A stretch of DNA of 54,602 bases from Nanobdellota archaeon (GTDB lineage: Archaea > Nanobdellota > Nanobdellia > Woesearchaeales > SM23-78). The notes beneath the pieces are model-generated. The model was not told the DNA's origin. It worked only from the letters and a program-made list of their open reading frames with translations, and made no database searches. Within the stretch, counting starts at the first letter, position 1. Every line of letters starts with the position of its first letter. Shown piece by piece: positions 4,165-41,873 of the stretch. The DNA is taken from contig JAHJQO010000044.1 of NCBI GenBank assembly GCA_018819305.1, positions 1 to 54,602 of the forward strand, read 5' to 3'. A program made the position numbers and the translations under genes.

Positions 4165-4800
4165 CTATTCGAGCCCTTTCTTCAGCTCTTCAAAAACATC
4201 ATCAATTGGCTGCTCGCCATTGACTCTTAATAGCAATCCTTTTTCTTCATAATAATCAACAGTGGGCTCTGTTTCTTTATGATAAACTTCAAATCTTTTT
4301 TGAATTGCTTCAGGTGTAGAATCATCACGAACCTTAAGCTCGCCACCGCACTTGTCACAAACGCCTTCTTCTTTAGGCTTAATATATATTGTATTATAAT
4401 TTGCATTGCACTCACTGCAAACTCTTCTTGCACCCATTCTCTTGGCGCATTCTTCCTCGCTTACATCAATAAAAATGCATTTAGTAACTTCCCTATATTC
4501 CTTAAAGAATTCAGCCTGGGTTACTCTTCTGGGATAGCCGTCAAAAACAGCACCTTTTTCAACTTCAGGATTCTTAATAACCCTTAAAAAAATAGCATTG
4601 GCAACTTCATCAGTTCCAAGATTGCCAGCATCAATGAGCTCACGAACCCGTCTGCCAATATCAGAATCTTCTTCTCTTATCTTTCTGAACTCATCGCCAG
4701 TAGAAATATGAACCAATCCTGTTTCTTTTGCAAGCAGAGCAGCCTGCGTGCCTTTGCCAGAACCTGGCAGTCCTAAAACAACATAATTTATCTGTTCCAT
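4165..4800 (-). CDS. adk: Adenylate kinase with a four-Cys zinc LID
   Basis: P-loop GLPGSGKGTQ, then ISTGDEFR, then LID CSECNANYN...CDKCGGELKVRDDS. I place the start at ATG 4798-4800 (MEQINYVV...), preceded by GGGTGA. The 4857 start in the ORF track would overlap the upstream gene by 53 nt. Confidence 0.9.
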   Translation of the reverse strand: MEQINYVVLGLPGSGKGTQAALLAKETGLVHISTGDEFRKIREEDSDIGRRVRELIDAGNLGTDEVANAIFLRVIKNPEVEKGAVFDGYPRRVTQAEFFKEYREVTKCIFIDVSEEECAKRMGARRVCSECNANYNTIYIKPKEEGVCDKCGGELKVRDDSTPEAIQKRFEVYHKETEPTVDYYEEKGLLLRVNGEQPIDDVFEELKKGLE

Positions 4801-4804
4801 TTTT

Positions 4805-5275
4805 TCACCCAAAATACCCCAATTCTTTTTTAGTTTTCTGCTCATTTTTCCAGGCATCTTTTATCTTGGAAAGAATCTTTACAAACTCTTGTTTAACATC
4901 ATTCCATTCATTATGAGTCTTAATAATCAATTTAGCAGCAGATTCTTCATCATGATCAAAGTCATTTATCAACAGATCAGCATGATAAGAAGATACTTTC
5001 TTGAAAAATTCAAAGATTTTCTTCATCTCATCCTCAGAAAAACTCTCTGCTTCATACATAGAAGTAATACTGCTCTCTGGCTGCAGGATATCACCAAGAA
5101 TCTTGAGCACATGCTCAAGTCTCTCAGCCATCTTATTCACTACAAACCTGAGAACATAATCAGTTTCCTCAATCTTGCCAATGCAAAACTCCTTGTCAAG
5201 CAAAGAAAGCTCAGGCAACCCATGCTTCTTCATCAATCCTTCATAAACCTTAATCATGTCTTTTTCTTGTGTCAT
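4805..5275 (-). CDS. Hypothetical protein (156 aa)
   Basis: Clean ORF ending 4 nt before the adk start, so probably co-transcribed with it. No recognisable motif. Confidence 0.55.
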   Translation of the reverse strand: MTQEKDMIKVYEGLMKKHGLPELSLLDKEFCIGKIEETDYVLRFVVNKMAERLEHVLKILGDILQPESSITSMYEAESFSEDEMKKIFEFFKKVSSYHADLLINDFDHDEESAAKLIIKTHNEWNDVKQEFVKILSKIKDAWKNEQKTKKELGYFG

Positions 5276-5777: not shown

Positions 5778-5951
5778 TTTAATTCGTAGGATTTCGAGTG
5801 AAACGAGAATATCCTACTTAATTGCATTTGTGAACTTTGGGAGCGAAGCGGGCTAAAGTTCAAAAGGCTTTTTTTCTTTAGTTCGTACGACTTTATGTCG
5901 TACTTGATTGCATTTGTGAACTTTGGGAGCGAAGCGGGCTAAAGTTCAAAA
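5778..5951 (+). repeat. Two tandem copies of a structured element (variable hairpin + conserved 51-nt segment that contains a second hairpin)
   Basis: 5815-5865 and 5901-5951 match at 50 of 51 positions, with an 86-nt period. The conserved hairpin is TGAACTTT-N16-AAAGTTCA. The upstream hairpins GTAGGAT...ATCCTAC (5786-5817) and GTACGAC-TTTAT-GTCGTAC (5885-5903) differ by compensatory changes. A T8 run follows copy 1 (5869-5876). Confidence 0.8.
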
Positions 5952-5975
5952 TCAAAACATTTATATATAACTTAT

Positions 5976-6087
5976 TGTCATACATATAGAATACTATACA
6001 ATTACGTATACCAATTGCATAGTTAAGAGTGCTCAGGCACACAATAAGCTGACATATAACATACAAATGACATACATCTGTCATACA
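5976..6087. promoter_or_regulatory. Four TGWCATAYA motifs upstream of the RHH gene pair (candidate operator sites)
   Basis: TGTCATACA at 5976, TGACATATA at 6050, TGACATACA at 6068 and TGTCATACA at 6079. The last two form the inverted repeat ATGACA-N6-TGTCAT just before the GTG at 6093. Confidence 0.3.
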
Positions 6088-6092
6088 GGGTT

Positions 6093-6299
6093 GTGAGAGT
6101 GAGTAAGAAAAGCCAAGTATTGAACATCAGATTGCCTGAAGAGCTAATTCTAGAACTAGATAATCTTGTAGAAAAAAGAATATTCAAATCACGCTCAGAA
6201 GCTATAAGAGAATTCGCCAGACAGTATGTGCAAGAGCAACAGTTGTACATCACTGCAAAAAACGCCAAAAATTCTGAACAGGAGGGTGGGAGATGGTAA
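6093..6299 (+). CDS. Ribbon-helix-helix (CopG/NikR-N-like) DNA-binding protein
   Basis: VLNIRLPEELILELDNLVEKRIFKSRSEAIREFARQYV fits the beta-strand plus two helices of an RHH fold. GTG start. The stop overlaps the next gene's start (ATGGTAA). Confidence 0.75.
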   Translation: MRVSKKSQVLNIRLPEELILELDNLVEKRIFKSRSEAIREFARQYVQEQQLYITAKNAKNSEQEGGRW

Positions 6300-6568
6300 C
6301 CTCAATTGTTAGTGTGAGGATGCCATCCTCCCTGGTTCAGAAACTAAGAGAACTGGCAAAACAAAACCATTTCTTAGATGTAAGCGAGGAAGTAAGAAGC
6401 ATAATCAAGATCCAGATAAGAAAACAAAAGATAATGATGGGCGAAGCCAGGCCAATTGAAACAGAAACCAAAAAAATCAAACCAACAGACTACAAAACAG
6501 AAAACATGGTAAAAGAAGAATTAGTAAAACGACTCAAAACCATGATACAAGAACTAGAAAATGAATAA
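6293..6568 (+). CDS. Second ribbon-helix-helix protein
   Basis: IVSVRMPSSLVQKLRELAKQNHFLDVSEEVRSIIKIQI is RHH-like. The stop overlaps the start of the 1019-aa gene (ATGAATAA at 6561-6568). Confidence 0.65.
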   Translation: MVTSIVSVRMPSSLVQKLRELAKQNHFLDVSEEVRSIIKIQIRKQKIMMGEARPIETETKKIKPTDYKTENMVKEELVKRLKTMIQELENE

Positions 6569-9500
6569 AAACATTTTATCAGGAAAGAGCATCATATTCA
6601 TCCTCTTATTATTACTATATATGATGCCAGTGGCAGCAGAAATCACACTTTACGCACCTGATGATGAAGCTTTCACCAATTCAAACAGTGTAACATTTGA
6701 CTATTATCTCAACATAAACAACACAACCAACTGCAAGCTCATAATTGACTCTATAATGAACATGTCAAGCATGACTTTGGAAAACCCAGGATTTAATTCA
6801 TTTACAACAAATATAAATCCGGGAGCACATACTTGGAGTGTGCAGTGCGACACATTAAATGCAACAGAAACCAGTGAGCAAAGATACATTACTGTAGATG
6901 TGATGGAACCAACCATAGTGCTCTTTTTCCCAGTTAACAACACCCAGATAAATGAGAGCAATGTGGATTTCAACTTTGTTGCAATTGATAATTATGGAAC
7001 TGAACTTACCTGTGATATTCTCATAAACAACACAATAGAAAAAACAGTAACAGTAACTAACAGTGAACCAGAAATAACAAACATAGACAACATAGAAGAT
7101 GGAACATATACCTGGCACATTATTTGCAAAGACATAGCAAACAACTCAGAAACAAGCAACACAAGAATTTTCAGAATAGATACAACCACTCAAGACCCTG
7201 AATTCAGCATAACAATACCAAAACAAGAATACACTCCAGGAGAAGCAGGGCTTATGACAATCAGCGCGCCAAATGGAGCCAGCATCAGAGTAGAGATTTG
7301 TCCAGACCAGTCAGGTTTTGTCGAATGTGATGTTCCTGTAAATGCGCAAAATGTGATGAACTATCCATTCCAGGAATACCTGAGCTTTACAAACTCTGCA
7401 GGAAAATATATACTGGAAGCACTGTTCAATTATAGTGGATATATAGAAACACAAATGCTCCACTATGAAATATTAAACAACATAGGTATTGAAATAGAAA
7501 CAGATGAAGTAGCAAGAAGAAATGTTCCATTCAACATGGAAGCAGATGCAACAGGAGGGCTTGGAACCTTAAACTATACCTGGCACTTAAGCAATGGTTC
7601 AACAGTAAAAAACAAAGAAGTTGAAATCACATATGGCACAGCAGGCAACTTCACAGAAACAATAATAGTAAAAGACCAATACAACAACACAAATAACCAG
7701 AGTATTGTGATATGGGTAAGAGACTCTGTGTTGATAGACATACTTGTAAAAGATTCAGTCAGAGGCACAGTATTAAAAGATGCAACTGTGGAGATTGAAG
7801 ACCAGCAAAAAATCACAGGCACAAATGGAATAGTAAGCTTTTATGTAAGAACTGGAATGAGAAAAGCAATGGTATTGAGAGAAAATTACTCAATCTTTAA
7901 TGAAGACTTAAACATTACAAAAGCAGAAACATTTACAATACAATTAGAACCATTAGAGCAAGCAAATATTCCAATAGTCACACTAATCAGTCCTGCAGAC
8001 AAATCACAAATCACAGGATCATCAAATGACCTGAAATTCAAAGCAGAACATTCAGCTGACTTAACATGCAATGTATATATTAATGAGAACAATGATGGGT
8101 TTTTCATTGACCTGGGTGATGTAGATGTCAAAGACAGCAGTGAAAAAACATTTGGAGTTATAGAGCTGGAAAACAAAACATACTGGTGGAATGTTGAGTG
8201 CAAAGACTCTGCTGGAAAAACAGGAACCAGCAGTACCTGGGAATTTACAGTAGGAGCGCCATCAGCAGAAGCAGTCACATTACAACAAGACCCAACAGAA
8301 TACGCAGAATATGATGAATGGGTAAAAGAATATGAATTCATCCTTGACACAATAGAAAAATTAACAAAACAAGAAAAAGAAGCAGCAGATGCACTTGGAA
8401 TCTCAGGGAAAATAAAAGACAGCATAGCAGTTTTCAAAAACACAATCAGGGATTTGGACGGACTACAATTCAGAGATGATTTGACAGAAGAAGAAAAAGA
8501 AGCAATGCGCAAAGAACTCATTATCAATGCTGAAGAAGCATATCAAAAAACACCAGTGAGTTTTGAGCTGGTAAAATCAGAAAATTATGTTGACTATATT
8601 AAAAAAGAAGAACTGGAAGCATTAGTAGATGAATACCTGGAACTCAAAGGCATTTCAGAAGAAGTCAACAAAAAGAAAATACTGGCTTTCCTTGAAGCCC
8701 TGCAGCAGGAAGTTGTGATTTCAACAACAATAACAAATGCAAGGCTTAGCTATAAAGACGGCTCTCAAAAAGAAATAACAGCAGTTATCAGAGATGTAAA
8801 AGTCTATAACTTAACAGACGGAACAGTAATAATAGAAATAATTCCAAAAGAAATCATTCAGTCTGCACAAGAAGTAATAAGTGCACAAGAATTTAAAATA
8901 ATAAAAGATGATCCGCTTATTAGCTTTGGTCTGAAGGGTGACACTAAAATAACATATTACTTTGAAAAGAACATAGACCTTGAGCAAATAAAAAAAATCA
9001 AGACAGCTGTGTTTATTGAACTTGAAGAGCTTTCAGAAAACCAGATTACAGGCTTTGCAGCCAGATCTTCAGGAGGACCAAAAATAAAAATAATTTTCTT
9101 CCTGCCAATATTGATTATACTGCTGGGAGGCCTTGTATTTGGAGCAGTCAGATACAATGGAATTGACACAGTTAAATATGCACTTTACAAGCTGCAGGGG
9201 CAAAAAAGCCTGCACTACATAAATGTGATTCTCAGCGACATACATGATCATCTTGATGCAGGAAACCATGAGCAGGCCATAGATTTATATGATGAAGCAA
9301 AAGGCGCATATTCAGAACTAAGCACTCATGCAAAGAATGATGTATATGAAAATATTGTTGAGACTGCTGCAAAAATACAAAGCCATACTCAGCAGACCCA
9401 AACTCATGAACCTGGAATGAACAGAATAAAAGAAATGATTGGCAATATAACAACTCTGCTCACAAATGGAGAGCTGCATCCTGCGCTTGAAGAGTACAAA

Positions 9501-9620
9501 CAAATTGAACATTTATATCACCAGTTTGATGACAGCACAAAAGAAATCCTGCATCCAACACTAACGGCATTGGGAAACAAGATTCAGATATTTATTGAAA
9601 ATGAAAAAGACAAGATATGA
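6561..9620 (+). CDS. Bitopic surface protein: N-terminal signal/TM, Ig-like and PKD-like repeats, C-proximal TM, helical cytoplasmic tail
   Basis: N-terminal hydrophobic segment IIFILLLLLYMMPVAA. Ig-like modules end in TWSVQCDT, TWHIICKDIANN and YWWNVECKDSAGK. PKD-like segment LNYTWHLSNGSTV..ITYGTAGNFTETIIVKDQYNN. TM helix IIFFLPILIILLGGLVFGAV, followed by about 130 aa of helical tail. Confidence 0.8.
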   Translation: MNKNILSGKSIIFILLLLLYMMPVAAEITLYAPDDEAFTNSNSVTFDYYLNINNTTNCKLIIDSIMNMSSMTLENPGFNSFTTNINPGAHTWSVQCDTLNATETSEQRYITVDVMEPTIVLFFPVNNTQINESNVDFNFVAIDNYGTELTCDILINNTIEKTVTVTNSEPEITNIDNIEDGTYTWHIICKDIANNSETSNTRIFRIDTTTQDPEFSITIPKQEYTPGEAGLMTISAPNGASIRVEICPDQSGFVECDVPVNAQNVMNYPFQEYLSFTNSAGKYILEALFNYSGYIETQMLHYEILNNIGIEIETDEVARRNVPFNMEADATGGLGTLNYTWHLSNGSTVKNKEVEITYGTAGNFTETIIVKDQYNNTNNQSIVIWVRDSVLIDILVKDSVRGTVLKDATVEIEDQQKITGTNGIVSFYVRTGMRKAMVLRENYSIFNEDLNITKAETFTIQLEPLEQANIPIVTLISPADKSQITGSSNDLKFKAEHSADLTCNVYINENNDGFFIDLGDVDVKDSSEKTFGVIELENKTYWWNVECKDSAGKTGTSSTWEFTVGAPSAEAVTLQQDPTEYAEYDEWVKEYEFILDTIEKLTKQEKEAADALGISGKIKDSIAVFKNTIRDLDGLQFRDDLTEEEKEAMRKELIINAEEAYQKTPVSFELVKSENYVDYIKKEELEALVDEYLELKGISEEVNKKKILAFLEALQQEVVISTTITNARLSYKDGSQKEITAVIRDVKVYNLTDGTVIIEIIPKEIIQSAQEVISAQEFKIIKDDPLISFGLKGDTKITYYFEKNIDLEQIKKIKTAVFIELEELSENQITGFAARSSGGPKIKIIFFLPILIILLGGLVFGAVRYNGIDTVKYALYKLQGQKSLHYINVILSDIHDHLDAGNHEQAIDLYDEAKGAYSELSTHAKNDVYENIVETAAKIQSHTQQTQTHEPGMNRIKEMIGNITTLLTNGELHPALEEYKQIEHLYHQFDDSTKEILHPTLTALGNKIQIFIENEKDKI

Positions 9621-9720
9621 TTAAGATATGATGTATAAGGTATAATAAATAAGGAATAAAATAAAAAAATAACATAAGAAAAAAAGAAAAAATAACATAA
9701 TAAATTATAAGGAATAAACA

Positions 9721-12700
9721 ATGGTTGAGAAATCAAGAACAAAGGACATTGTATTCACAACAATAATTATCATACTAATAGTTTTAGCTGTAAAAGGACT
9801 GGCCATCATAGGACAATTTATGGGATTTGTTACTTATCATGCAGCAGATGCAGGAACAATTACAGAGATAGACATAAAAATAAGTTTTGATGTAAGCCAC
9901 TGGTCTGCTATTTATGGAACTGCCTGGGGAGTGGGATGGACTCAGGAATGGTATTATAATTTCACAGGAAATGTGTCGCTCTCAGAAGCAGCGAATGAAA
10001 AACATCTCTTGTTTGAATGTATGGAGCCTGGAATAGATCATGAAATATATGCAAGCATGGTGCCTGAAGCAGATATAACTTTCTCTTCCTTAGTGGCAGC
10101 AACAACAGCAGAATATGATGCATACTTAAATGTTGGGGCTAGTGAATTTTACTCAGCCTCAAATACTTTTACAGAAAGCTATAACTTTAATGTGGGTGAC
10201 CTGCAAATATCAGCACCAGCAACATACACATATGTCTGGAACAGCACTGGCTCAACAAGTTTTGTAACAGGAATACTAAAAGATGACAGCGGCAATCTTA
10301 TTTTAGTCACCAAAGTTATAGGAACACCCATACAGAGTTTTAAAAGTGAGCGCTTTAACTATCAGATGCTTCTTCCAATTGCAAACACTAGCTGGCAGGA
10401 TTATTATTTCTGGACTGACCCAACAGATGAATGTCCAGAAGGAAATGGTACAGCTCCTTTCACAGGCACGCTGATTGGAAATGTAACTGATTCTGCAGGC
10501 AACCCTATTGAGCAGGCAGTAATACAAGTAGGAAGTTATGCAACTTACAGCCAGACCACCACGGGCTTCTACAACATGAGTGTAGCAGAAGGAAACTTCA
10601 AAATCTTTGCAATGAAAACAGGCTATGACATCTATCAAAGCAATGTTACAATTGTTAGAGGCAACACAACAGTACATAACATTGTAATGATTGCAGAACA
10701 GCCGCCTTATCCTCCTCTTACAGGAATAGGACCTGGTGAAGACGATCCTGGAACCAGCACAGAAGCAGGAGTGGATGAAGCAGGAACAGAAACAAAAACA
10801 GGAGACTATGATATGCCACCTGTCATTCAAAAGCCACAAAAAATAGAAGGAACAGATTACATCATATCTATTTCTGAAATTAACAGAAAACTCAGGCTGG
10901 GCAATTTTTTGCAGGAAAAAATAACACTTTACAGTTTTAAAGAAAGACCTGCTTCAATATATTTTGAAATAACAGGGAACATCTCTGACTTAATAAAAAT
11001 AGATAAGGAATCAATGGTACTGCAGCCTCGTTCAGATGATTATGTGACTCTCACTGCATTTGGAGTGGGCACCCCAGGTGTATATAATGGAAGCCTGGAC
11101 ATGACAGGAGATATTAATGCCACCATACCTATAACAATAGAGATTCTTCAAAAAGACATGCTTCCAGTTCAGGCCTTACTTATTGACCTTGAACTCAATA
11201 AAAAAATTGTGTTCCCTGGCGAGAGGCTGAAATTCCAGACTAACATGAGAAACCTGTTGACAGATCTCGAGTATCCTGTTAATTTATTATACACAATACA
11301 AGATGCAGAAGGTCAGGAAACAGTATGGTCATATGATACAAATGTGTTTATGAAAACATCATTCTCTCTTCTAAAGAACGCGCTCATTGGACCCAAAGCA
11401 AAGCCAGGAGATTATGTGTTAAGAGTTACTGCCAGCTATCTTGGACTGACAGCAGGAACAAGTGTGATGTTTAGAATAAGCACGCCATGGTACCTGGTAA
11501 CAGTTGTTGGTCCATTTAAAGTCTGGCACATAATATTATTCCTCATCCTTGCCGGTCTGGGAGTGTTTGCTTATTTCCATATTAAAAAAAGAATTGAAGA
11601 TAAAAAGAAATTCCACTTGAAAGTTGAGATGAATGAGCTTCCAAAGCCAGGACCAAGAAGTATATTTGTAGGAAAAATTGCAGAGACAGATAATAAAACT
11701 TACTTTAACATGGAAGCATTCATGACTCACACAATTGATGCAGGAAGCACAGGTAGTGGAAAATCTGTATCTGCGCAAGTCATAGTAGAGGAACTTCTTG
11801 ATAAAGGAGTTGCAGTAATAGTATTTGACCCGACGGCACAGTGGACAGGAATGCTTAGAAAATGCACAGACAAGACAATGCTTGCATTGTATCCTTACTT
11901 TGGAATGAAACCAACAGATGCAAAACCATTCAGCGGAAACATCAGGCAAATAAACAATCCGAGAGAGCAGATTGACATAAAGAAATATGTAAAGCCAGGA
12001 GAGATACAGGTTTTTGCATGCCACAAATTAGAGCCAAAAGAAATGGACATTTTTGTATCCAACAGCATCAGGCAAATTTTTAGAGCCAATTTCCAAGAAA
12101 GCAGAACCTTGAAAGTATTGTTTGTATATGACGAAGTTCACAGGCTGCTGCCAAAATTCGGAGGAAGCGGAGAAGGTTTCCTGCAGATTGAAAGAGGATG
12201 CAGAGAGTTCAGAAAGTGGGGGCTTGGAATGCTGCTAATATCACAGGTACTGAGCGACTTTGTCGGTACAATCAAAGCAAACATAAACACAGAAGTGCAG
12301 ATGAGAACAAGAGATGAAGGAGACCTTGAAAGAATCAGGGTAAAGTATGGAGAAGATGTACTCAGATCACTGGTCAAAGCAACAGTAGGAAGTGGAATGG
12401 TGGAAAACCCTCACTACAACAGAGGTAAACCATATTTTATTGCATTCAAACCTTTAAAGCACAGTGTTCAAAGACTGACTGACGAGGAAATTGAAAAATA
12501 CAATGAATTCAATGACCAGATTGACCAGCTGCAATTTGAACTTCAGCAATTAGAGCAGGAAAAAATAGATATATTTGACCTCAAGTTAGAGCTAAAACTG
12601 GCAAGCGACAAAGTAAAAACAGGAAACTTCAACATGGTCCAGATTTATACCGAAGGAATAGTGCCAAGAATAAAAAAACACTGGGAAAAACTAGGTAAAC

Positions 12701-13638
12701 AGGCAAAAAAACTAGAAATAAAAATTGTTTCAGAAGAAGAGCTGCAGGAAGCATTGAATGCAGCAAAAAAAGCAAGAGCAGATTATGAAACTGAAAAGAA
12801 AAAACAAGATGCAAAAAAAGCAAAAGCAGAAGCAGAAGAAGGAAAAGAAGGAGAAGAAAAAAAAGAAAATCTGTTTAAAAAAGATGTCAACCCAGACAAG
12901 ATTCTGAAACTTGTGAATGGCATGCTGGTAATCAATATGGCTAGTCTTTATGATGAAATTGCTGCAATGAAAGACGAAGATTTTGAAAAACACGTGACAA
13001 TAGATAAAAATGATTTTGCAGACTGGATAAGAGATGCAGTTGGTGACAAAGAACTGGCAGAGCACATCTCATTCACAAGAGACAAAGATAAGATGCTAAA
13101 ACTCCTTGATTTAAGAAGAGAGAACAAGCCACTTCCCAAGCTTGACAAAGAAGCAGCAAAGAAAATGCAAGAAGAAGAAATACTTGAAGAATTGTCAAAG
13201 CCGCCAGAGGAGCAAAAAAAGCAACCCCAAAAGGAAGTCAAAAAAGAAGTCAAGCCAGAAATAAAACCAGCAGAACCTGTGATAAAAAAAGAAGAACAGA
13301 AAACAGAAAAACCAACTGAAGATCTTGAAAAGAAAATTAGTCTTGAACAAATCAAAAAGGCAATAAAAGCAAGCATACAGATACATGAGCCTGAGCCTGA
13401 AGTAACACAAGTTGTTCATACTTTCAAGCTTCAGAACGGAGAAGAGATAAGGAATCTTGATGAGTTAAAACAAAAATTAAAGCAAATGGATGACAACACA
13501 TTCCAAAACTATGTTGGCGAGGATTATAATCATTTTGCAAACTGGATAAGAGATGAACTGCAGAAACCTCAGCTTGCTGACAAAATATATCATATCAGGG
13601 ACAAGAACAAATTAGTTGAGGTATTGGAGAATGGCTGA
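9721..13638 (+). CDS. Membrane-embedded HerA/FtsK-class P-loop ATPase with a large extracellular N-terminal region and a Lys/Glu-rich C-terminal tail
   Basis: TM1 is IVFTTIIIILIVLAVKGLAII. A CarboxypepD_reg-like segment reads GNVTDSAGNPIEQAVIQVG...FKIFAMKTGY. TM2 is VWHIILFLILAGLGVFAYF (nt 11521-11580). Walker A is DAGSTGSGKS (about 11740-11770) and Walker B is LFVYDEVH (about 12120-12141), followed by GLGMLLISQ.. as in DUF87/HerA-type ATPases. The tail is coiled-coil and KE-rich and carries two copies of a module of about 45 aa. Confidence 0.8.
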   Translation: MVEKSRTKDIVFTTIIIILIVLAVKGLAIIGQFMGFVTYHAADAGTITEIDIKISFDVSHWSAIYGTAWGVGWTQEWYYNFTGNVSLSEAANEKHLLFECMEPGIDHEIYASMVPEADITFSSLVAATTAEYDAYLNVGASEFYSASNTFTESYNFNVGDLQISAPATYTYVWNSTGSTSFVTGILKDDSGNLILVTKVIGTPIQSFKSERFNYQMLLPIANTSWQDYYFWTDPTDECPEGNGTAPFTGTLIGNVTDSAGNPIEQAVIQVGSYATYSQTTTGFYNMSVAEGNFKIFAMKTGYDIYQSNVTIVRGNTTVHNIVMIAEQPPYPPLTGIGPGEDDPGTSTEAGVDEAGTETKTGDYDMPPVIQKPQKIEGTDYIISISEINRKLRLGNFLQEKITLYSFKERPASIYFEITGNISDLIKIDKESMVLQPRSDDYVTLTAFGVGTPGVYNGSLDMTGDINATIPITIEILQKDMLPVQALLIDLELNKKIVFPGERLKFQTNMRNLLTDLEYPVNLLYTIQDAEGQETVWSYDTNVFMKTSFSLLKNALIGPKAKPGDYVLRVTASYLGLTAGTSVMFRISTPWYLVTVVGPFKVWHIILFLILAGLGVFAYFHIKKRIEDKKKFHLKVEMNELPKPGPRSIFVGKIAETDNKTYFNMEAFMTHTIDAGSTGSGKSVSAQVIVEELLDKGVAVIVFDPTAQWTGMLRKCTDKTMLALYPYFGMKPTDAKPFSGNIRQINNPREQIDIKKYVKPGEIQVFACHKLEPKEMDIFVSNSIRQIFRANFQESRTLKVLFVYDEVHRLLPKFGGSGEGFLQIERGCREFRKWGLGMLLISQVLSDFVGTIKANINTEVQMRTRDEGDLERIRVKYGEDVLRSLVKATVGSGMVENPHYNRGKPYFIAFKPLKHSVQRLTDEEIEKYNEFNDQIDQLQFELQQLEQEKIDIFDLKLELKLASDKVKTGNFNMVQIYTEGIVPRIKKHWEKLGKQAKKLEIKIVSEEELQEALNAAKKARADYETEKKKQDAKKAKAEAEEGKEGEEKKENLFKKDVNPDKILKLVNGMLVINMASLYDEIAAMKDEDFEKHVTIDKNDFADWIRDAVGDKELAEHISFTRDKDKMLKLLDLRRENKPLPKLDKEAAKKMQEEEILEELSKPPEEQKKQPQKEVKKEVKPEIKPAEPVIKKEEQKTEKPTEDLEKKISLEQIKKAIKASIQIHEPEPEVTQVVHTFKLQNGEEIRNLDELKQKLKQMDDNTFQNYVGEDYNHFANWIRDELQKPQLADKIYHIRDKNKLVEVLENG

Positions 13639-14089
13639 GCAGGAACAAGAAGAAAAAGAAAAAGATGAGCTTGGAATACAAAAGCTTGCAGAAGAGATAA
13701 GTGAAACCAACAGGAAAATAGATGATGCTTATGATGAAAAGCTCAGAAGACTGGAAGCCAAGAAAAATCTGATACCTGATGAGAAAACAGAAGATGAATA
13801 TAATTATAGAATTGCAGAGCTCAAAGAAAAATTGTCAGAAGTAAAGCATCAAATCAGCGAAGCGAGAAAATCAGGCAAAGACCCTTTGATTGCAGACCTT
13901 GTGCTAAGAAATGTGAATGCAAAGATTCAAATGGCAGAAGTCACTCATGATAAAAATGATTTTGAAGCAGTAGAAAATGTTTTAAACAAAGCAGAATTAG
14001 AGCTTAAAGAAGCACTAAAACAAGAAGAGGTTAATATTAAAAAAGAGATTGAAGAAAGACTTGTTGCAGAATATACTAAAGCAAAATAA
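13631..14089 (+). CDS. Coiled-coil protein (about 152 aa)
   Basis: ATG at 13631 overlaps the ATPase stop (ATGGCTGA). The sequence is charged with a heptad-like character. The TTG at 13616 in the ORF track is less likely. Confidence 0.6.
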   Translation: MAEQEQEEKEKDELGIQKLAEEISETNRKIDDAYDEKLRRLEAKKNLIPDEKTEDEYNYRIAELKEKLSEVKHQISEARKSGKDPLIADLVLRNVNAKIQMAEVTHDKNDFEAVENVLNKAELELKEALKQEEVNIKKEIEERLVAEYTKAK

Positions 14090-14123
14090 TTAATTTTCAA
14101 ACAAAAACTTGAGGTGAGAAGCA

Positions 14124-15320
14124 TTGGGCTTATTTGGTGGAAACAAAAAGAAATCCAGGGATGAAATAATTGCTGAGGGAATAACTGAAGCAGAAGCATC
14201 TGTAGTTGACCAAGATAAAAAAGACGAGACTTTTAATTCTGGCAATCCTAAGATGGATATGGAAATAACCAAGATAAAAGCCCAGCTGGAATCATATAAT
14301 GAGATAAGAAAATCTAATTCTGAAAGATTCTCAAGATTAAGCGAGCAAATGGGAGAACTCAGGGGAATGATAATGGACACTAACAAGACAATGTCAAAGA
14401 TAGAAGTTAGTGCAACCAAAGCAATTGACCTTGTTGAAAGCGTGCATCCGGAAAAACTTATGGTTGAGATAAGAAAACAAGAAGGAAAAGGAGAAGCTCT
14501 GAAGGCAAATATTGAAAGCAATGAGGCAATGATGCATGACATCCTGGAAGAGCTCAAAAAAGTGCGGCAGCAGATGAGCTTTTACAAGGGCATTGAGCAG
14601 GTTACAAAATTAAATGAAGAGGTCAAAGGAGAGCTTATTGACATCAAAAAAGTTGAAGGAACAATTGAAAGGCATGCTGACAAGGCAGAAACAATATTCA
14701 TTGACATGGAAAAAAGATTTGCAGAGTTTGAAAAATTCATAAGGACTGTGGATGACATTGAAAAGACTTTCCACACCATGCAGGGTTCATTTGATAACAT
14801 GAAGCTTGACCTTAGCAAAAAAGCAGAGAAAAAAGAAATCGGCAGTCTGATGGACAAGCTGACTGAGTTTGAGAATCACACAGGAAACATCCTCAAACTT
14901 CTGGATGAGCGTTCAAAGCACATGAAACAAGAACTAAAAGATACAATTAAGAAGATAAAAAACCAGCTCAGAAAAAAACACAACATTGTATTGGATGAGC
15001 GCAGTATAAAAGAAGAAAGCCTGCCTAAAGAAGAAAAAGATTACATGGAAAAAACCCTGAACACGCTTGTGAATAAAGATGACAAAGAAAAAGAGTTGAA
15101 AGAAGAGAATAAAGAGAGTGAATCAGATGAATCTAAAGAAGAATTCCCCCAGCCTGAGCAGGAGATAAGAGAAGTAGATGTAGAAGAGCCGGCTAAAATA
15201 GAGCAAAAAAAAGAGAAACAAGAAGAAACTCAAGAAGAAAAGCAAGAAGAACTAGATCTAAAAGATGTTCTTAAAAGAAGAAGTATTATTACTAAAGAAC
15301 TGAGTGATGAAAAATTATAA
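14124..15320 (+). CDS. Long coiled-coil protein with an acidic C-terminus (398 aa)
   Basis: TTG start with GAGGTGA 6 nt upstream. N-terminus MGLFGGNKKK, then about 300 aa of predicted helix, then an E/K-rich tail. No enzymatic motif. Confidence 0.65.
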   Translation: MGLFGGNKKKSRDEIIAEGITEAEASVVDQDKKDETFNSGNPKMDMEITKIKAQLESYNEIRKSNSERFSRLSEQMGELRGMIMDTNKTMSKIEVSATKAIDLVESVHPEKLMVEIRKQEGKGEALKANIESNEAMMHDILEELKKVRQQMSFYKGIEQVTKLNEEVKGELIDIKKVEGTIERHADKAETIFIDMEKRFAEFEKFIRTVDDIEKTFHTMQGSFDNMKLDLSKKAEKKEIGSLMDKLTEFENHTGNILKLLDERSKHMKQELKDTIKKIKNQLRKKHNIVLDERSIKEESLPKEEKDYMEKTLNTLVNKDDKEKELKEENKESESDESKEEFPQPEQEIREVDVEEPAKIEQKKEKQEETQEEKQEELDLKDVLKRRSIITKELSDEKL

Positions 15321-15331
15321 GCTGATTCTGA

Positions 15332-15577
15332 TTAACCATAAATAATAGTTCCTATCACAATAAGAACATCAAGCACTATCCAGCAAACATAAGCATAAAT
15401 AATTGGTTTTTCCTTGTGCAATATGCCATAAATAAGCCAGAAAACTGCCTGAATAGTGTAAACAATCCAAGAAATCAGAGAAATACTGGTTGCATTTTTC
15501 GCAACCCAAATTTTAAGAACCTGAGGAATTGTCATCAAAGGTCCAATTATTCCAACCACAAAGATGGCCTTGTCCAT
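15332..15577 (-). CDS. SemiSWEET / PQ-loop family transporter (3 TM)
   Basis: 81 aa with three hydrophobic helices and the PQ motif in TM1 (MTIPQVLKIW). Confidence 0.7.
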   Translation of the reverse strand: MDKAIFVVGIIGPLMTIPQVLKIWVAKNATSISLISWIVYTIQAVFWLIYGILHKEKPIIYAYVCWIVLDVLIVIGTIIYG

Positions 15578-17345: not shown

Positions 17346-17939
17346 GTGATTGGCAACGAATTAGAGCAAGAAATAATTAGCCTGTACTCTAAAGATATTA
17401 GTTCTCTGTACAGCATAAACCAGATAGCTCACAGGCTGGGAAAAAAATATCCCTACATAAACAAAAAAGTAAGCTTTCTCATCAAACAAAAAATCTTCAA
17501 AAAAACAATCATTGGACGTTCTTATCTCTGCTCACTCAACCTGAACAATGATGAAACCATCTATCTTCTGATTCTTAATGAGATAAGAAAAAAGAAAGCA
17601 GAACTTGAGCTCAACCCTCAGCTGCAGGAAGTAATTGATTACACAGACAAAGCAAGGAAAATCATCAACCTTCAACTAGTGATTAAGAGCAAAGACACAA
17701 TCATGTTTGTGCTGCCAACAGCCGATGACAAGGAACAGTTTGAAAAAGCAATAGTAAAGCAAGTGATGAAAGATTTCAAAACCAGCATACTAAGCAAAGA
17801 AGAATTTCTCAAACAACTGCTGGACCAAAAAGAACTGCAGGAAAGACATGTGATTCTGCATGGCTATGAAAAATATTACGAGTGCATAAGAGAGATAGAG
17901 GACGAACTAAAACTAAGATATTCAAAACTAATACCATGA
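17346..17939 (+). CDS. Putative winged-helix DNA-binding protein
   Basis: The N-terminal YSINQIAHRLGKKYPYINKKVSFLIKQKIFKKTIIGRSYLCSLN resembles the wHTH N-domains of the MNT proteins at 37922 and 41086, but no GS..DxD nucleotidyltransferase motif follows. Its stop overlaps the start of the giant gene (ATGA at 17936-17939). Confidence 0.5.
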   Translation: MIGNELEQEIISLYSKDISSLYSINQIAHRLGKKYPYINKKVSFLIKQKIFKKTIIGRSYLCSLNLNNDETIYLLILNEIRKKKAELELNPQLQEVIDYTDKARKIINLQLVIKSKDTIMFVLPTADDKEQFEKAIVKQVMKDFKTSILSKEEFLKQLLDQKELQERHVILHGYEKYYECIREIEDELKLRYSKLIP

Positions 17940-20900
17940 AACAACAAAACCCCAACCAAATTAAAAATAGAATAATCAAGAGAAGTATGATTCTATTTGT
18001 GGTATTAGTTCTAGTTCTAACAGGTCTGGCTCAAACCCTAAGCCAATCACAGCCTGAAACCCAAACCCCAACCCAAAAACTCCTCTACCTCTCTGTAGAA
18101 AAGCCATGGTATGAACTTGGAGAAAAAGTGACTTTAATCATAACAACAGGAAAACTTGAAAACTATGAGCTAAGTATCAGCTCAGAAGAGAACTTCTACA
18201 AATTCAGCGGAGAGCTAAGCAACAACATAGACTTTTATCCAAAAGAAGAAGGATTGCACACAGTTGAACTCACAGAAAAAACTAGCAACAATTTGGCTGA
18301 CTCGCTTGAGTTTATTGTAGGAACAGACACAGCACAAACCAGCTCAGAAAAACCACTTGAAAAAATAAGCAATGAAATCATAAGCACAGATAAGATAGAA
18401 TATTATCCTGGAGAACCAGTCACAATCATTATAAGACTGGTAGAACAATCATCAAATAATTTCAACTTATATTATGAATACCAAGGATTCAGCCAGAAAT
18501 ACATGGGCAACCTAAGTAACAACACGCAAATAGTACTCATTCCCCGCGGGCTTGGAACACACCAACTCATATTAATGAATAAGAACAACAACATAATTGA
18601 CAATCACAGTTTTGAAATAAAAGAAAACCCAAGCATTAACACTATTTCAAGTCCTGTAAAAATAAAAAACAGTCAAGGAGGCGCACTGCAGGCCAGCATA
18701 ACTTTTTACAATGAAGAAGACACACCAATAACAACCACAACCACGCAAAGCAGTTATGCCATACCAAAAAACACAAAAAAAGTCAAAATCATACCAACAG
18801 ACCAAACTGTAGAAAACATAGTACTGGAAGGACTAGAAGGAGAAATCAACCTCGGCATGGAAAAAATCCATCCATTAAAAAACCCTGTACCAGACAGGCA
18901 TTCTATAAGTTCATTTGCAATTGACCCAACACAAACCAATTTTACCAATGCCACAGTAACACGGACTGCCAAAGGAACCGAATTATGGAAATGCAAAGAT
19001 TACACTTTTGAAACACAGACTTGTTTTGGAACATGGGAAAAAGTAATGAATATAACACCTGGAGAATCATACAGTTTTCTGCTCACACCAGAAGATCCTC
19101 AGTTCACAGAAACAATAACAAATTTATTCTGCAGCTGCCAAGTCACAGTATACAGTATAGGAGGTGATCCAGACACAGATTCATGTAGTACATTCTGCTC
19201 AGCAACAATAGATGTGCCTGCAGGTGCACAAACAGGATACTTAATGAACATGAGTTATGGAGTAAGCATAACTTTAACAGGAGATGTTAATTCAATAACA
19301 GCTGGAAGCCATGAAGGGCAATTTGACCAGGATCAAACATATGGCAATGGAAATGCTGCAACAATAGGCTCATCAACCACAACAAGCACAACAAGCACAA
19401 CCTGGCTCAACAATACATTAGTCAGTTCTGGCAGTGATGCTTTTGATGAGGTAAGTTGTGACGACTGGGCAAACACATGCACATGGTATGTTTATTTAAG
19501 TTCTGAAATAACTGTTGATGCTGGTGGAAAGTCAGATAAAACTGCAACCACAAACATAAGCCTTACAAGCATGAGTTATACCTGGAACTACACAATGCCA
19601 GGAGATCTAACAGTAACCCTTAACTGGCCAAGCGGAAACCTCCTCAACTATAGCAGCATTAATTTCAACTACACACCATCAACAACAGCCACACTCCAGA
19701 ACTGTACACTTTACACCAACAGAACAGGAGTATTTACAAATGAAAGCACAAACTCAACACCACAAAACGACCAGCCAAATTATTTCAACCAAAGCTTTAG
19801 CAGTGATGGATATTATTTATGGAATGTTTACTGCGAAGACAGCGACTCAAATATGGAATGGGCGCCAAACAACAAAACCTTTTTGATAGACACAACAGAA
19901 CCAACAATAAACCTAGAAAGCCCTGAAGACGAAAATGAAACATCAGCAGCAGCAATAACATTTTACTACAATGTCTCAGACACATATGGGATAAAAAACT
20001 GCTCCCTTATAATTGACGGTGAAATCGACCAGACAGAGCCTTCTGTCACAAGAGACACAAGCCAAAGCTTCACCACATCTCTTGCCAATGGAGAACACAC
20101 CTGGGCAGTATGGTGTTATGATTTGGTCAACAATCTCAATAAATCAGAAAACAGAACCATTAATGTTACTCTGGCCAGAAGAATATGGACTGACAGATGG
20201 TATGAAACAGGAACCGCAAACTATAGCGGAACAGCAGCAGACATCTCACTGGAAAACCAGACTGACGGAATTCAAAATCAATTATACTATAATCTTCCTT
20301 CAGTGACACCTCTAAACTTTCTCAACGCCACTTCTCCTTATATTGGTGGAGACGGAGCATTCATAGGCAGTGGCGCCACAGTTACTTTCAGAATGGCATT
20401 TGCTGCTGCAGAAGCAAAAGCAGAAGTCAGCTGGCACTTATATGTATTGCACGCAGGCGGTTCCATGACAGAAGTTTGCAGCAACGGAGATGACCGGGGC
20501 GGTGGAACACAAGTAACAGTAATAACAGAAGCCACATGTAGTCCTTCATCAAACATTAAGCTATCAGGAACTGACAGGCTAAAACTAGTAATAAACATAT
20601 ACAACACTCAAACAGGCCAGTTAAATGATGTCACCCACTACTTTGACCACGCCAACTCTTATGTAAATATTGAGAACTTTGTAACCCTGGGTCATCTTCA
20701 AGTAGATTTAATCCAGCCAACTGAAAACTTAATTCTTAGCCAGGGAGAAACATACAATCAAACATGTAATGTTACATGTATTGACGGAACCTGTCTTAAC
20801 ACACAGACATATGTTCAATACAACACCTCAGCAGATCCCTGGACAAATATAAGTTCATCAGGAAATATAATATTAGGTGCTAGTGAAACCAATCCTCACA

Positions 20901-23900
20901 TCACAGGAAACATAAGCAGTGCAACAAATGAAACATATTTAATTAATGGTAGCCAGCCCTCAACAAACTATGTGCGGTGTTATGCTGAATCACAATACTC
21001 AAGTGCAACAGGCACAACTCTCAGGCGAATAATTGTAGGAGATACCCTGCCCCCGGATGTAAGCCTGACAAGACCAGCAGACTTTAATTACTCTGACAGC
21101 AGCACAGTAACATTTTTCTATGATGTATATGAACTCACAGAAATTGCCAACTGTTCAATCATATTAAATGGAAGTATTAATGACACAAAATATACTGCAG
21201 AAATAGTTAATGATGAAGAAAACAATTTCACTGTAACTGGACTTACTGAAAGCAGTTATAATTGGACAGTAAACTGTACAGACAACGGAGGCTACACAGG
21301 AACAGACACGCCAAGAACAATCTACATAGACCTGACAGATCCATGGATATTCCTAAACTATCCTGGACAATGGGACACAGTAGGATATGAAACAGTTAAT
21401 TTCAATTGGACAGCCAATGATAATTATAATCAAAATCTTGATTGTGATTTATATATTGATGGAGCAATAAATGAAACAGGAATGACTTCTCCTCAAGCAA
21501 CCCCTGCAAACCAAACAGTCACAGGGCTTTCAGTAGGAAACCACACATGGTACATGAATTGTTCAGATGTATCTGGCCGAAGAAATATAAGCGAAACAAG
21601 AAACTTCACAATACAAGACAGCACACCAACAGTTAAACTGGAATTCCCTCCACCAGACCATGTAAATGATTCAAGCCCCTTGCTTTTCCAATACAATGCA
21701 TCAGACAACAATGGATTCCTGAATTGTACCTTATTTATCGACGGTCAGAAAAACGAAACCAACTCCAGCATTGCAAACAATGAACTAAACAATTTCAGCA
21801 TACTGCTCTCCGAAGGAGACCACAACTGGACAGTCACATGCATTGACACAGGATACTTAAATGATACAGCAGCCTGGCAGGACTTTACAATAGACCTGAT
21901 AGACCCATATGTATTTTTAAACGAGCCCATACCAACTGAAAATTTCACAAATGGAGATGTAACATTTAACTACACGGCATACGACTCAATTGACTTAAGT
22001 CTGTCCTGTGAATTATTTATCGACGGAAATTCAGAAAGTAATGACACAGCCACAAACTCCTCGCCAGAACTGGTAAATATAAACAATATATTAGATGGGT
22101 TCCATTACTGGAATGTAACCTGCACAGATGACTCCACGCGTCAGAATATCAGCGAGACCAGAAACTTCACAATTAATGAAAGCCCGCATATTAACCTCAA
22201 TATCCCTGCGCAGTGGAATGTATCAAATGAAAACATAACCTTCTTTTACACGCCAATCGATAATGATGGATTTACCAACTGCACAATATATATTGACGGA
22301 GATCCAAATGCAACAAACATCACAATATACAATGGCGTGCAAAATAATTTCACGATCGGAAAAATACCTGAAGGCAATCACACATGGAATGTAGGCTGCG
22401 TTGATAATGGTACCTATCTCAATTCTAATGTATCATTAACAAGAAATTTCACAGTCGACACAACAAACCCCACACTCATCCTTAACTTCCCAGGACCAGA
22501 TGAACAAGTAAACCAGACACAAGTAGATTTCAACTGGACAGCCAATGACACATTAGACACAAGTCTTAGCTGCGACCTTTACATCGGAGGAGACCTCAAC
22601 CAGTCGGGTATTCCGTCAGAAGCAGGCAACCAAACTGTTATAAGTAAAAATTTTCCAAATGGACGATATAACTGGAGCATAATATGTTATGATGATGCCA
22701 ACAACTATAACACAAGTGAAACCCTATGGTTTAATGTCAGTACTCCGCCAAGTATAGAACTCACTTTCCCAGACCCAAATGAAAATATGAATTATACAGA
22801 CTTGATGTTTGAATATATACCTTCGGCAGGAGCAGCCATCCAAAACTGCACATTATATATTGACGGACAAGAAAACGAGACTAACAGTAGCATAGACCCT
22901 GATAATTATAATTATTTCTGGATAACCCTTGGCATCGAAGGCAAACATAACTGGAGTGTGCGATGCATTGATGTTGATCTAATTCCAGGGTGGAGTGAGA
23001 CTAGAAATTTCACCTTGGACTTCAAAGCACCAAGAATTGAAATGAATTATCCAGGAGACGACGACACAGTCACTCGAAACAGAATTGAATTTAATTTCAC
23101 AGCCATTGATGACTACTCCTTAAACATGACTTGTAATCTGAGTGTTGACGGAACCCCTGTTGGTCTCAACTTGCCAGTACAAAATGATACTCCAAAGCTA
23201 TACAATGAAACATATCCTGACGGAAACTATACTTGGTATGTGGAATGCTGGGATAATGCAACCAACTACAATATCACTGACACATGGAATTTTACAATTA
23301 TTGCTCCACCCGATGTCACATTAATAAGTCCTGCTAATGGAAACTTCACAAATGCGACTTATGTAAATCTCACATACTTACCAGAAGATGATTATGTGAT
23401 ACCTAATTGTTCATTATATCTCAATGGCACATACTCAGGATACTATGATGATAACGTTGACACTAATGATAATAATTCATTTGACATAATCGGTCTTGGA
23501 GAAGGATACTACAACTGGACTGTGAACTGTACTGACCAGGATGAAAACACATATGCACCTTCAGAATGGAATTTCACAATAGACCAAACACCACCTATTG
23601 CAACCTTGCTGCTGCCAAGCCCTGGAGCATTGCTGACATCTGAAAATGTATTGTTCAACTTCTCAGTTGTTGACAGCATTGATGATAATGTTTCTTGTAA
23701 TCTGACAATAAATGGGAGTATAAACATAAGCAACATACCTGTAAACAATAATTCATACTACAACAATACTCTGCAGAACCTGAATGACAGCCTTTACCTC
23801 TGGAATGTTACCTGCTGGGATACTGCAAGCAATAAAAACACAACAGCAACACAGAACTTCACAGTACAGGCTCCGCCAAAAATAGCACTCGGAAACCCAG

Positions 23901-41755: not shown

Positions 41756-41873
41756 TTATTGTTTTTGTTTACTTTCCAACTGCTTTTCCAACTCAGCAAT
41801 CTTCTTCTTCAACTCAACCATTCGAAGCTCTCTGCCAACAGACATCTTCTGGAATTTCTCAAGCTCATCAACC
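41756..41873 (-). pseudogene. Copy B of the decayed sensor-gene 3' end (VDELEKFQKMSVGRELRMVELKKKIAELEKQLESKQKQ*)
   Basis: The minus-strand translation aligns with the last 35 or so residues of the PAS protein (ERFQKMAVGRELVMVELKKKIKELEEKLISS*). It begins exactly where the ATPase gene stops (TGA at 41868-41870). Confidence 0.75.

Follow-up and report, generated by a model that had tools for sequence, protein, structure and literature searches.

What kind of envelope machine does a Nanobdellota archaeon encode in an operon that sets a membrane-embedded ATPase with a large ectodomain beside a second surface protein? The operon occupies positions 6093–15320 of contig JAHJQO010000044.1 (assembly GCA_018819305.1), and the window analyzed here is the whole stretch of 54,602 nucleotides (nt). 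The comparisons below indicate that the ATPase, a protein of 1305 amino acids (aa), is almost certainly a member of the SPEARE family of surface proteins, in a short form that is split over several genes. The operon comprises six open reading frames (ORFs), all on the + strand:

6093..6299, + strand: RHH1, a ribbon-helix-helix (RHH; CopG-type) protein of 68 aa (PF01402, E 4e-10)
6293..6568, + strand: RHH2, a protein of 91 aa whose N-terminal segment is weakly RHH-like and whose tail is basic/acidic
6561..9620, + strand: the immunoglobulin-like (Ig)/PKD protein, a bitopic surface protein of 1019 aa
9721..13638, + strand: the ATPase, a short SPEARE-type protein of 1305 aa
13631..14089, + strand: coiled-coil protein 1 (cc1), helical, 152 aa counted from ATG
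14124..15320, + strand: coiled-coil protein 2 (cc2), all-helical, 398 aa, TTG start

Consistent with the first-pass annotation of this DNA, which had reported six same-strand genes with three start/stop overlaps, RHH1 and RHH2 share ATGGTAA (6293–6299), RHH2 and the Ig protein share ATGAATAA (6561–6568), and the ATPase and cc1 share ATGGCTGA (13631–13638). Gaps of 100 nt and 34 nt separate the Ig protein from the ATPase and cc1 from cc2, respectively. The 8-nt ATPase/cc1 overlap is also present in close relatives (L007, L008, and L009).

Membership in the SPEARE family

SPEARE proteins were described by Hamm et al. (2019, PNAS, PMC6642349) as very long surface proteins of Nanohaloarchaeota with a C-terminal transmembrane (TM) helix and a conserved intracellular domain; most of the protein lies outside the cell, the C-terminal region lies in the cytoplasm, and the ectodomain contains at least one laminin-G domain plus several adhesion domains. 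The giant forms span 3315–9409 aa, versions of 655 and 717 aa were also named SPEARE, and four copies were found in Ca. Nanopetramus SG9. The intracellular domain was labelled a type III restriction enzyme, with degradation of imported DNA as the first suggested function, and similar sequences were noted in Woesearchaeota, Aenigmarchaeota, Micrarchaeota, and Altiarchaeales (PMC6642349). Reva et al. (2023, Front Microbiol, PMC10266531) subsequently described the architecture as a signal peptide, an Ig-rich ectodomain, a TM helix, a cytosolic VirB4/TraG-like ATPase, and a coiled coil, and proposed that SPEARE acts as a secretion “straw.” A cultivated nanohaloarchaeon that depends on its host expresses the protein, which has been suggested to take part in the interaction with the host (PMC6642349, PMC10266531).

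We compared the window ATPase with the C-terminus of the SPEARE of Ca. Nanohaloarchaeum (Nha.) antarcticus, whose sequence was read from the text of Fig. S18 in PMC6642349 and matches contig NAR1_11 (L090) at 96%. The two proteins are 46% identical over 381 aa (E 2e-124), and when more upstream SPEARE sequence was included, BLASTP extended the alignment to 582 aa at 38% identity, covering window residues 417–980 and running through the second TM segment (TM2). In addition, Table S3 of Hamm et al. lists KYK27349.1 (AYK26_03765) of archaeon SM23-78; this protein (P0007) is 71% identical to the window ATPase over its full length, and its locus (L008) holds the whole operon. The first-pass annotation had known of no described system with this fusion architecture, a claim that is not supported given the two SPEARE papers, the direct homology (46% identity), and the ortholog in Table S3. 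Likewise, its idea of contact-dependent uptake or transfer is a hypothesis already put forward in PMC6642349 and PMC10266531.

The window protein shares with SPEARE a hydrophobic N-terminal segment, an extracytoplasmic bulk, one TM helix, a conserved cytoplasmic P-loop ATPase, and a helical C-terminus. It differs from the giants in length (1305 aa versus 3315–9409 aa) and in that no laminin-G, protease, or toxin-like domain was detected. Unlike SPEARE, moreover, the operon carries its Ig/PKD adhesin-type repeats on a separate bitopic protein, the ATPase bears C-terminal DUF5752-like modules while the cc1 module is a separate gene, and the whole is preceded by the RHH pair and followed by cc2. 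The VirB4-like ATPase that lies downstream in the SVXNc and BNXNv loci (PMC10266531) has no counterpart downstream in the window.

An exhaustive search of 1.84 billion representative proteins returned relatives in 371 clusters (50% identity) at E<=1e-30. Protein length in these clusters ranges from ~400 to 6253 aa, with ectodomains of ~100 to ~5600 aa on a constant core, and in many clusters the ~400-aa core forms the C-terminal end of a protein of 2000–6253 aa. With phmmer, a 4862-aa Woesearchaeota-labelled protein aligned from window ATPase residue 372 and a 2019-aa ORF on a Micrarchaeota-labelled contig from residue 417. SPEARE-type cores also occur in proteins of 5203–7818 aa on contigs labelled Hadesarchaea/Hadarchaeales (the P0158 cluster), and the family may thus extend beyond DPANN, judging from the contig labels; Hadarchaeales are not known to be symbionts.

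The operon as a whole is conserved. A word-indexed search found 36 full-length ATPase homologs at 31–75% identity, those with names being assigned to Woesearchaeota, Nanoarchaeota, or “Euryarchaeota archaeon SM23-78,” and among GTDB species representatives at least 513 stretches encode relatives of the ATPase. The best 80 loci of the GTDB scan derive mostly from Woesearchaeota, Pacearchaeota, and Nanoarchaeia metagenome-assembled genomes (MAGs), some with evidently wrong labels. The order RHH1-RHH2-Ig-ATPase-cc1-cc2 recurs in most of 86 related loci, which bears out the earlier proposal of a single coupled gene cluster. Counting only loci with enough flanking sequence, RHH1 lies upstream of the ATPase in 48 of 62 and RHH2 is the second gene in 48 of 62; cc1 follows the ATPase in 60 of 74, and 64 of 70 have cc2. 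Because the arrangement recurs across dozens of species-level genomes, it is far beyond what chance would produce. A second type of locus, mostly Pacearchaeota-labelled, contains ATPase-cc1-cc2 only, and in three loci the RHH genes precede a longer ATPase (1387–1624 aa) that has no separate Ig protein beside it. Housekeeping genes (TruD, adenylate kinase) flank the operon even in genomes whose ATPases share only 43–65% identity with that of the window. Literature searches on DUF5752 and on this operon found no description, and the set of partners (RHH pair, bitopic Ig protein, cc1, and cc2) goes beyond the papers searched. No description was found either of the recurrent gene order, of cc2 genes next to SPEARE-type ATPases in several DPANN lineages, of cc1 as an apparently detached module of the ATPase, or of the ectodomain range of ~100 to ~5600 aa.

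Two further observations concern these loci. Upstream of the operon, at 4165–5275 on the - strand, the window encodes adenylate kinase and a 156-aa protein, which occupy the same position in 24/57 and 23/57 loci, respectively. Several contigs with the ATPase (L012, L017, L022, L029, L031, L033, L040, and others) were deposited as “uncultured Methanosarcinales archaeon” or “Candidatus Saccharibacteria bacterium”; most of them carry the full operon, and they are probably mislabelled MAGs.

SPEARE is a leading candidate for the means by which DPANN archaea attach to and exploit their hosts, and its size of up to 9409 aa hampers study. The locus described here offers a tractable SPEARE of 1305 aa with a cytoplasmic core of ~400 aa, together with a list of candidate interaction partners, namely cc2, cc1, and a bitopic Ig protein with a conserved cytoplasmic tail.

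The HerA-clade motor and its partner proteins

The following features were located in the ATPase gene:

10969..11577, + strand: juxtamembrane ectodomain module (residues 417–600) plus TM2 (601–619), conserved with SPEARE proteins
11638..12690, + strand: cytoplasmic HerA-clade P-loop core, about residues 640–990
11743–11766: Walker A motif GSTGSGKS, residues 675–682
12118–12141: Walker B motif LFVYDEVH, residues 800–807
12202–12222: REFRKWG motif, aligned with the REGRKFG motif of Sulfolobus HerA
Residues 834–842: GLGMLLISQ
12868..13635, + strand: C-terminal region with two DUF5752-like modules (PF19027, 4e-10, in two stretches)

The Walker A, Walker B, and GLGMLLISQ motifs named in the first-pass annotation are thus all present. 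Walker A, Walker B, and REFRKWG are invariant across the family, and we take the REGRKFG motif of HerA to hold the arginine finger. Pfam assigned the full-length protein to DUF87/HerA (3e-9), and the core alone scored 43.8 bits against the DUF87 cutoff of 23.2. A PDB profile search with a profile of 47 cores returned Sulfolobus HerA (4d2i) at 1e-12 and anti-phage HerA proteins with E-values between 1e-11 and 1e-8, whereas FtsK scored 0.014, VirB4 0.039, and DotL between 0.01 and 0.05. We then modeled residues 596–1305 with AlphaFold2 (AF2), using an alignment with database proteins; the mean predicted local distance difference test score (pLDDT) was 79.9, and most of the core exceeded 90. Searching this model against the PDB with Foldseek placed HerA 4d2i at the top (3e-10), followed by HerA-NurA and Sir2-HerA, with FtsK and TcpA at about 1e-7 (TcpA 3e-7). 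These results show that the ATPase core is a HerA-clade motor, closer to HerA than to VirB4 or TraG. The earlier assignment to a DUF87/HerA/VirB4-type ATPase therefore stands at the level of the HerA/FtsK superfamily, and the clade placement it had asked for puts HerA, not VirB4 or TraG, nearest among solved structures.

The other families are more distant. In Pfam, DUF87 and HerA_C matched 47/47 cores, and ResIII matched 31/47 from the P-loop region, which explains the original “restriction enzyme” label of the SPEARE domain. Weak matches to TrwB_AAD_bind, T4SS-DNA_transf, and AAA_10 were obtained for 30–39 of the 47 cores (TrwB_AAD_bind at 14.8–18.6 bits against a cutoff of 20.5; T4SS-DNA_transf in 30/47), and a CedD match in NCBIfam reached 31.5 bits against a cutoff of 600 and covered the Walker A region only. 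Pfam found no VirB4 N-terminal domain (PF03135) in the window proteins or in the 47 cores. The family label is thereby corrected to a motor closest to HerA rather than to restriction enzymes or VirB4.

The likeness to HerA (4d2i, and the HerA-NurA, Sir2-HerA, and DUF4297-HerA complexes) consists of the best sequence-profile and structural match and of the aligned Walker A, Walker B, and R-x-x-R-K-x-G motifs, although identity in structural alignments is ~15%. There are also differences. TM2 lies ~55 residues before Walker A, where HerA has ~140 N-terminal residues including a barrel domain; the HAS-barrel domain was not found, the 4d2i alignment starting at HerA residue 119. The AF2 model instead runs from a TM helix through a linker to the core, and the window ATPase is accordingly anchored in the membrane by a TM helix preceded by an ectodomain. 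Pfam, NCBIfam, and PADLOC detected no NurA or defence-effector domain in the five partner proteins, so that the NurA/effector partner of HerA is also missing from the operon. FtsK, TrwB/VirD4/TcpA, VirB4, and the Ced ATPases resemble the window protein in being anchored to the membrane at the N-terminus, ahead of a RecA-like motor of the hexameric type. However, its scores against all of these families are below cutoff, it lacks the FtsK gamma domain and the VirB4 N-terminal domain, its large ectodomain lies between two hydrophobic segments, and no type IV secretion system (T4SS) or Ced component is encoded nearby.

The topology of both surface proteins was read from hydropathy, flanking charge, and the distribution of N-glycosylation sequons. 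In the ATPase, a TM1/signal segment (residues 12–30) is followed by an ectodomain of ~570 aa (31–600), TM2 (601–619), and the strongly basic HIKKRIEDKKK, and 12 of the 13 sequons fall within residues 80–466. Hydropathy, positive-inside charge, and sequons agree with the earlier order of TM1, large ectodomain, TM2, and cytoplasmic P-loop domain, and place ~45% of the residues of this short form outside the cell. None of the findings that had been named as damaging to the first proposal was made: neither a loss of synteny, nor an unrelated P-loop family, nor an ATPase outside the cytoplasm or without TM2. The CarboxypepD_reg-like module noted earlier in the ectodomain does give a match, but at 29.2 bits it is below the cutoff of 32.3. 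An S-layer glycoprotein family matched the ectodomain weakly, far below cutoff, and Pfam gave no laminin-G there; protease or toxin-like domains were not detected in the protein. At the C-terminus, a KE-rich coiled coil had been proposed. The region is KE-rich, but it contains two confidently folded DUF5752-like modules (residues 1050–1140 and 1235–1305; a beta-hairpin plus helices, AF2 pLDDT 87–95) with a disordered KE-rich linker between them (<50).

The Ig protein matched PKD_4 (1.3e-8) and Big_13 (3.5e-8) in Pfam. A signal or TM segment at residues 11–29 precedes the extracellular part, 17 of the 19 sequons lie within residues 53–538, and a TM segment at 844–866 (9090–9158) leads into a cytoplasmic helical tail of 153 aa (867–1019; 9159–9617). 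The order of these elements is as first annotated; the TM segment had been placed near residue 870 and the tail had been put at about 130 aa. The design is general, since in 55 loci a protein of >700 aa ends <=400 nt before the ATPase start, and 54 of these 55 proteins have a strongly hydrophobic C-terminal segment followed by 110–183 aa (only 20 aa in the 55th). The Ig repeats within residues 18–268 are 27–34% identical to those of two giant proteins encoded at 17882–27379 (3165 aa) and 45165–54269 (3034 aa). These giants have a hydrophobic segment at the N-terminus only, share a C-terminal domain of ~400 aa that is 41% identical between them, and in neither was the ATPase core found. A giant Ig-repeat gene closely follows cc2 in about a dozen relatives.

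The first of the two downstream proteins, cc1, has the core motif IS..RK.GKDP..ADL.LRN..AKI..AE.T. Other SPEARE-type ATPases carry this module in fused form at their extreme C-terminus (P0070 at 1.3e-22, P0080, P0105, P0274, P0144, and P0098), among them a protein of 6253 aa (P0105) and one labelled Aenigmarchaeota, with the shared motif IS..RK.GKD...A.L......KI..A..T. From this fusion pattern we infer that cc1 would be a detached C-terminal module of the motor. The DUF5752-like module shows a comparable mobility: it forms the C-terminus of the ATPase here, and in many other loci, L016, L021, L033, and L034 among them, it is found at the N-terminus of cc1. The L016 cc1 (5937–7196) additionally ends in a CBS pair (2e-26), a hint of regulation by nucleotides.

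The second, cc2, begins with MGLFGGNKKK (14124–14153), the family form being MGLFGKKK or a close variant, and continues with a conserved helical region (about residues 40–290) and a KE-rich tail; 36 columns are invariant. We found 241 homologs. Among the 120 listed, Pfam gave at most a stray coiled-coil match, and names were generic or absent. The AF2 model of cc2 is all-helical (pLDDT 68.5; helices 42–105, 109–233, and 239–286). The matches of cc2 to SMC-type coiled coils are generic and far below cutoffs, a PDB profile search gave nothing below E 1, and Foldseek found no significant fold match.

A cc2 gene also accompanies the giant members of the family. The cc2 profile detected the gene directly downstream of the 4862-aa SPEARE-type gene on the Woesearchaeota-labelled contig (2e-51) and of the 2019-aa SPEARE-type gene on the Micrarchaeota-labelled contig (1e-57), and cc2 was also found in 14 metagenomic loci, some of them halophile-type. 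In the halophile-type loci the ATPases are 62–68% identical to the Nha. antarcticus SPEARE, cc2 was recognized at E 7e-20 to 3e-32, and some of the cc2 proteins begin with MGLFG or a close variant. In all, cc2 is the next gene after a SPEARE-type ATPase in L087, L088, L093–L099, L101–L106, and L113.

In its hydrophobic-basic N-terminal MGLFGKKK followed by a long helical hairpin, cc2 resembles ESCRT-III/PspA/Vipp1 proteins; the motif is similar to the membrane-binding helix alpha0 of CHMP3 and Vipp1. The helices of cc2 are, however, much longer. We regard this resemblance, which lies in the N-terminal motif only, as a lead and not as membership. As a candidate member of the ESCRT-III/PspA family cc2 was rejected: no Snf7 or PspA_IM30 match was among the 25 most frequent Pfam families of 38 members, and Vipp1/Snf7 appeared in Foldseek only at E 1.2–2.5.

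Proposed role and competing explanations

Taken together with the SPEARE homology and the HerA-clade core, our preferred reading, which we consider just short of an even call, is that the operon provides a Woesearchaeota-like DPANN archaeon with a short SPEARE-type envelope system that works as follows. The ATPase would form a putative hexameric ring just beneath the membrane, its channel running at right angles to the bilayer; the six ATPase ectodomains and the separate bitopic Ig/PKD protein would be displayed as adhesins; and ATP hydrolysis would drive a polymer through the ring where the cell touches its host. The protein cc2 would be a constant cytoplasmic partner, whose MGLFGKKK N-terminus may attach it to the membrane or to the ring. 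The mechanism by itself, a translocase at contact sites, is a slightly more tentative proposal. An outward-facing role is suggested by ectodomains that vary from ~100 to ~5600 aa on a constant core and by Ig repeats held in common with giant secreted proteins. As for what is moved, import of DNA for nucleotide scavenging would be the most likely case, because the nearest relatives of the motor move double-stranded DNA and because, to our knowledge, DPANN archaea lack nucleotide synthesis; that the substrate is in fact DNA we nevertheless rate as somewhat unlikely.

Several points weigh against this reading. The roles assigned so far to SPEARE-type proteins appear to be proposals, and the hexamer and its pore geometry are features that we infer. 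Should TM1 be cleaved off as a signal peptide, each subunit would contribute one TM helix, and six TM helices alone are unlikely to serve as a conduit; no channel protein was identified in the operon, and no nuclease, pilin, VirB6-like, or ComEC-like gene in the 54.6-kb window. The position of Woesearchaeota-type loci beside TruD and adenylate kinase fits a housekeeping role in the envelope as well, and relatives occur in Hadarchaeales-labelled contigs, whose organisms are not known symbionts. Finally, at the SPEARE gene of Nha. antarcticus itself cc2 is not adjacent, the next gene being on the other strand.

Two other explanations keep the machine in the envelope. It could serve housekeeping or division, as an FtsK-like device for chromosome clearance or in the assembly or anchoring of a glycoprotein surface layer, with the ectodomains forming a structural wall. 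Such a role would suit the conserved position beside TruD and adenylate kinase (the latter in 24/57 loci), the very wide distribution (at least 513 stretches in GTDB species representatives), and the Hadarchaeales-labelled relatives, and it draws on the weak resemblance of RHH1 to CdrS and aCcr1, the SMC-type matches of cc2, and the S-layer match of the ectodomain. All of those CdrS, aCcr1, SMC, and S-layer matches are far below cutoffs, however, and ectodomains of ~100–5600 aa with adhesin-type repeats are typical of interaction proteins rather than of a conserved wall scaffold; some genomes moreover carry several copies (four in Ca. Nanopetramus SG9, PMC6642349). We consider this explanation unlikely. 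The published alternative for SPEARE proteins is a straw for the export of proteins or effectors, in which the motor, working like a T4SS ATPase or coupling protein, would deliver symbiont proteins to the host by way of a channel that it forms with the surface proteins (PMC10266531). The weak TrwB_AAD_bind, T4SS-DNA_transf, and AAA_10 matches in 30–39 of 47 cores and the coupling protein TcpA among the Foldseek matches (3e-7) agree with it, and cc1 and cc2 could be substrates or chaperones. But both sequence and structure place HerA clearly closer than VirB4/VirD4, no VirB4 N-terminal domain was found, and the 54.6-kb window contains no second VirB4-like ATPase, VirB6-like protein, pilin, or relaxase; cc1, being fused to the motor in other members, is an unlikely substrate. 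Export of this kind is quite unlikely on balance.

A defence or exclusion device, in which a membrane HerA-type ATPase would handle incoming foreign DNA or degrade imported DNA, is brought to mind by the anti-phage HerA complexes among the closest solved structures, by PADLOC matches to mad8 (7e-15) and HerA (2e-13), and by the ResIII matches in 31/47 cores. The PADLOC matches nevertheless cover the generic P-loop core only, 0/5 partner proteins match any model, the operon holds no Sir2, DUF4297, nuclease, or methyltransferase effector, and defence islands do not usually show conserved core-genome synteny or a large ectodomain; we hold this explanation to be very improbable. Barely credible is the idea that the operon belongs to an integrated mobile element and serves conjugation or DNA transfer, the RHH proteins being accessory factors of the relaxosome type. 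An RHH pair next to a TM-anchored ATPase of the FtsK/HerA superfamily does resemble accessory and coupling proteins, and weak TraD, TraC, and CedD matches exist, but in NCBIfam these reach 24–31 bits against cutoffs of 366–600, no integrase, relaxase, or replication gene lies nearby, and the GC content of the operon is not distinct from the rest of the window. The same housekeeping flanks are kept where the ATPases are only 43–65% identical, and this conservation largely rules out a mobile element.

Within the preferred reading of a SPEARE-type translocase at contact sites, a bolder version is that the operon constitutes a minimal complete host-contact machine of DPANN archaea, in which a HerA-clade ring (SPEARE core plus cc1) and a membrane-binding, filament-like cc2 would build and power the narrow cytoplasmic bridges that have been seen to link DPANN cells to their hosts, and the Ig protein would be the docking adhesin. 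We judge this version improbable; if it were true, cc2 would represent a novel class of protein that shapes membranes in partnership with a translocase.

The RHH pair, an upstream repeat, and other genes of the window

The RHH genes at the head of the operon probably regulate it. The first-pass annotation had called both products RHH proteins. RHH1 scored 39.7 bits with PF01402 against a cutoff of 20.5, which secures its assignment, and RHH2 gave a weak match of 16.7 bits, below the same cutoff. The matches of RHH1 to NikR, CdrS, and aCcr1 are generic for RHH proteins and all far below the family cutoffs; at 16–30 bits against cutoffs of 60–100, RHH1 was rejected as a CdrS/aCcr1 cell-cycle regulator.

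Positions 5809–5951, within the 373-nt intergenic stretch that precedes RHH1, contain two copies of a 57-nt direct repeat, 95% identical and 86 nt apart, with an exact 44-nt core, TTGCATTTGTGAACTTTGGGAGCGAAGCGGGCTAAAGTTCAAAA. There is no other copy in the window, and Rfam gave no match. A conserved operator was considered and rejected: the core sequence is missing from 89 related loci, and upstream of RHH1 an exact direct repeat of >=16 nt is lacking in all of 52 other loci. The repeat could be a genome-specific operator or a small RNA.

At the other end, an 81-aa protein with three TM segments is encoded at 15332–15577 on the - strand and converges on the end of the operon. It matched MtN3/SWEET at 2.2e-5 (above cutoff) and PQ-loop, and is by these domain matches a SemiSWEET-type sugar transporter. 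The gene at 27558–30086, which directly follows that of the 3165-aa surface protein, encodes 842 aa and includes a Ser/Thr kinase domain of eukaryotic type (Pkinase, 4e-57). Further along, a HEPN protein lies next to a nucleotidyltransferase (40538–41679, - strand), and a second nucleotidyltransferase is found with an unassigned neighbour at 37922–38967 (- strand). Interleaved with these nucleotidyltransferase pairs are two AAA_14/DUF4143 ATPases (39198–40403 and 41868–43148, both - strand), and nearby are a large Cache/HisKA sensor kinase (34622–37888) and a PAS protein (43251–44924).

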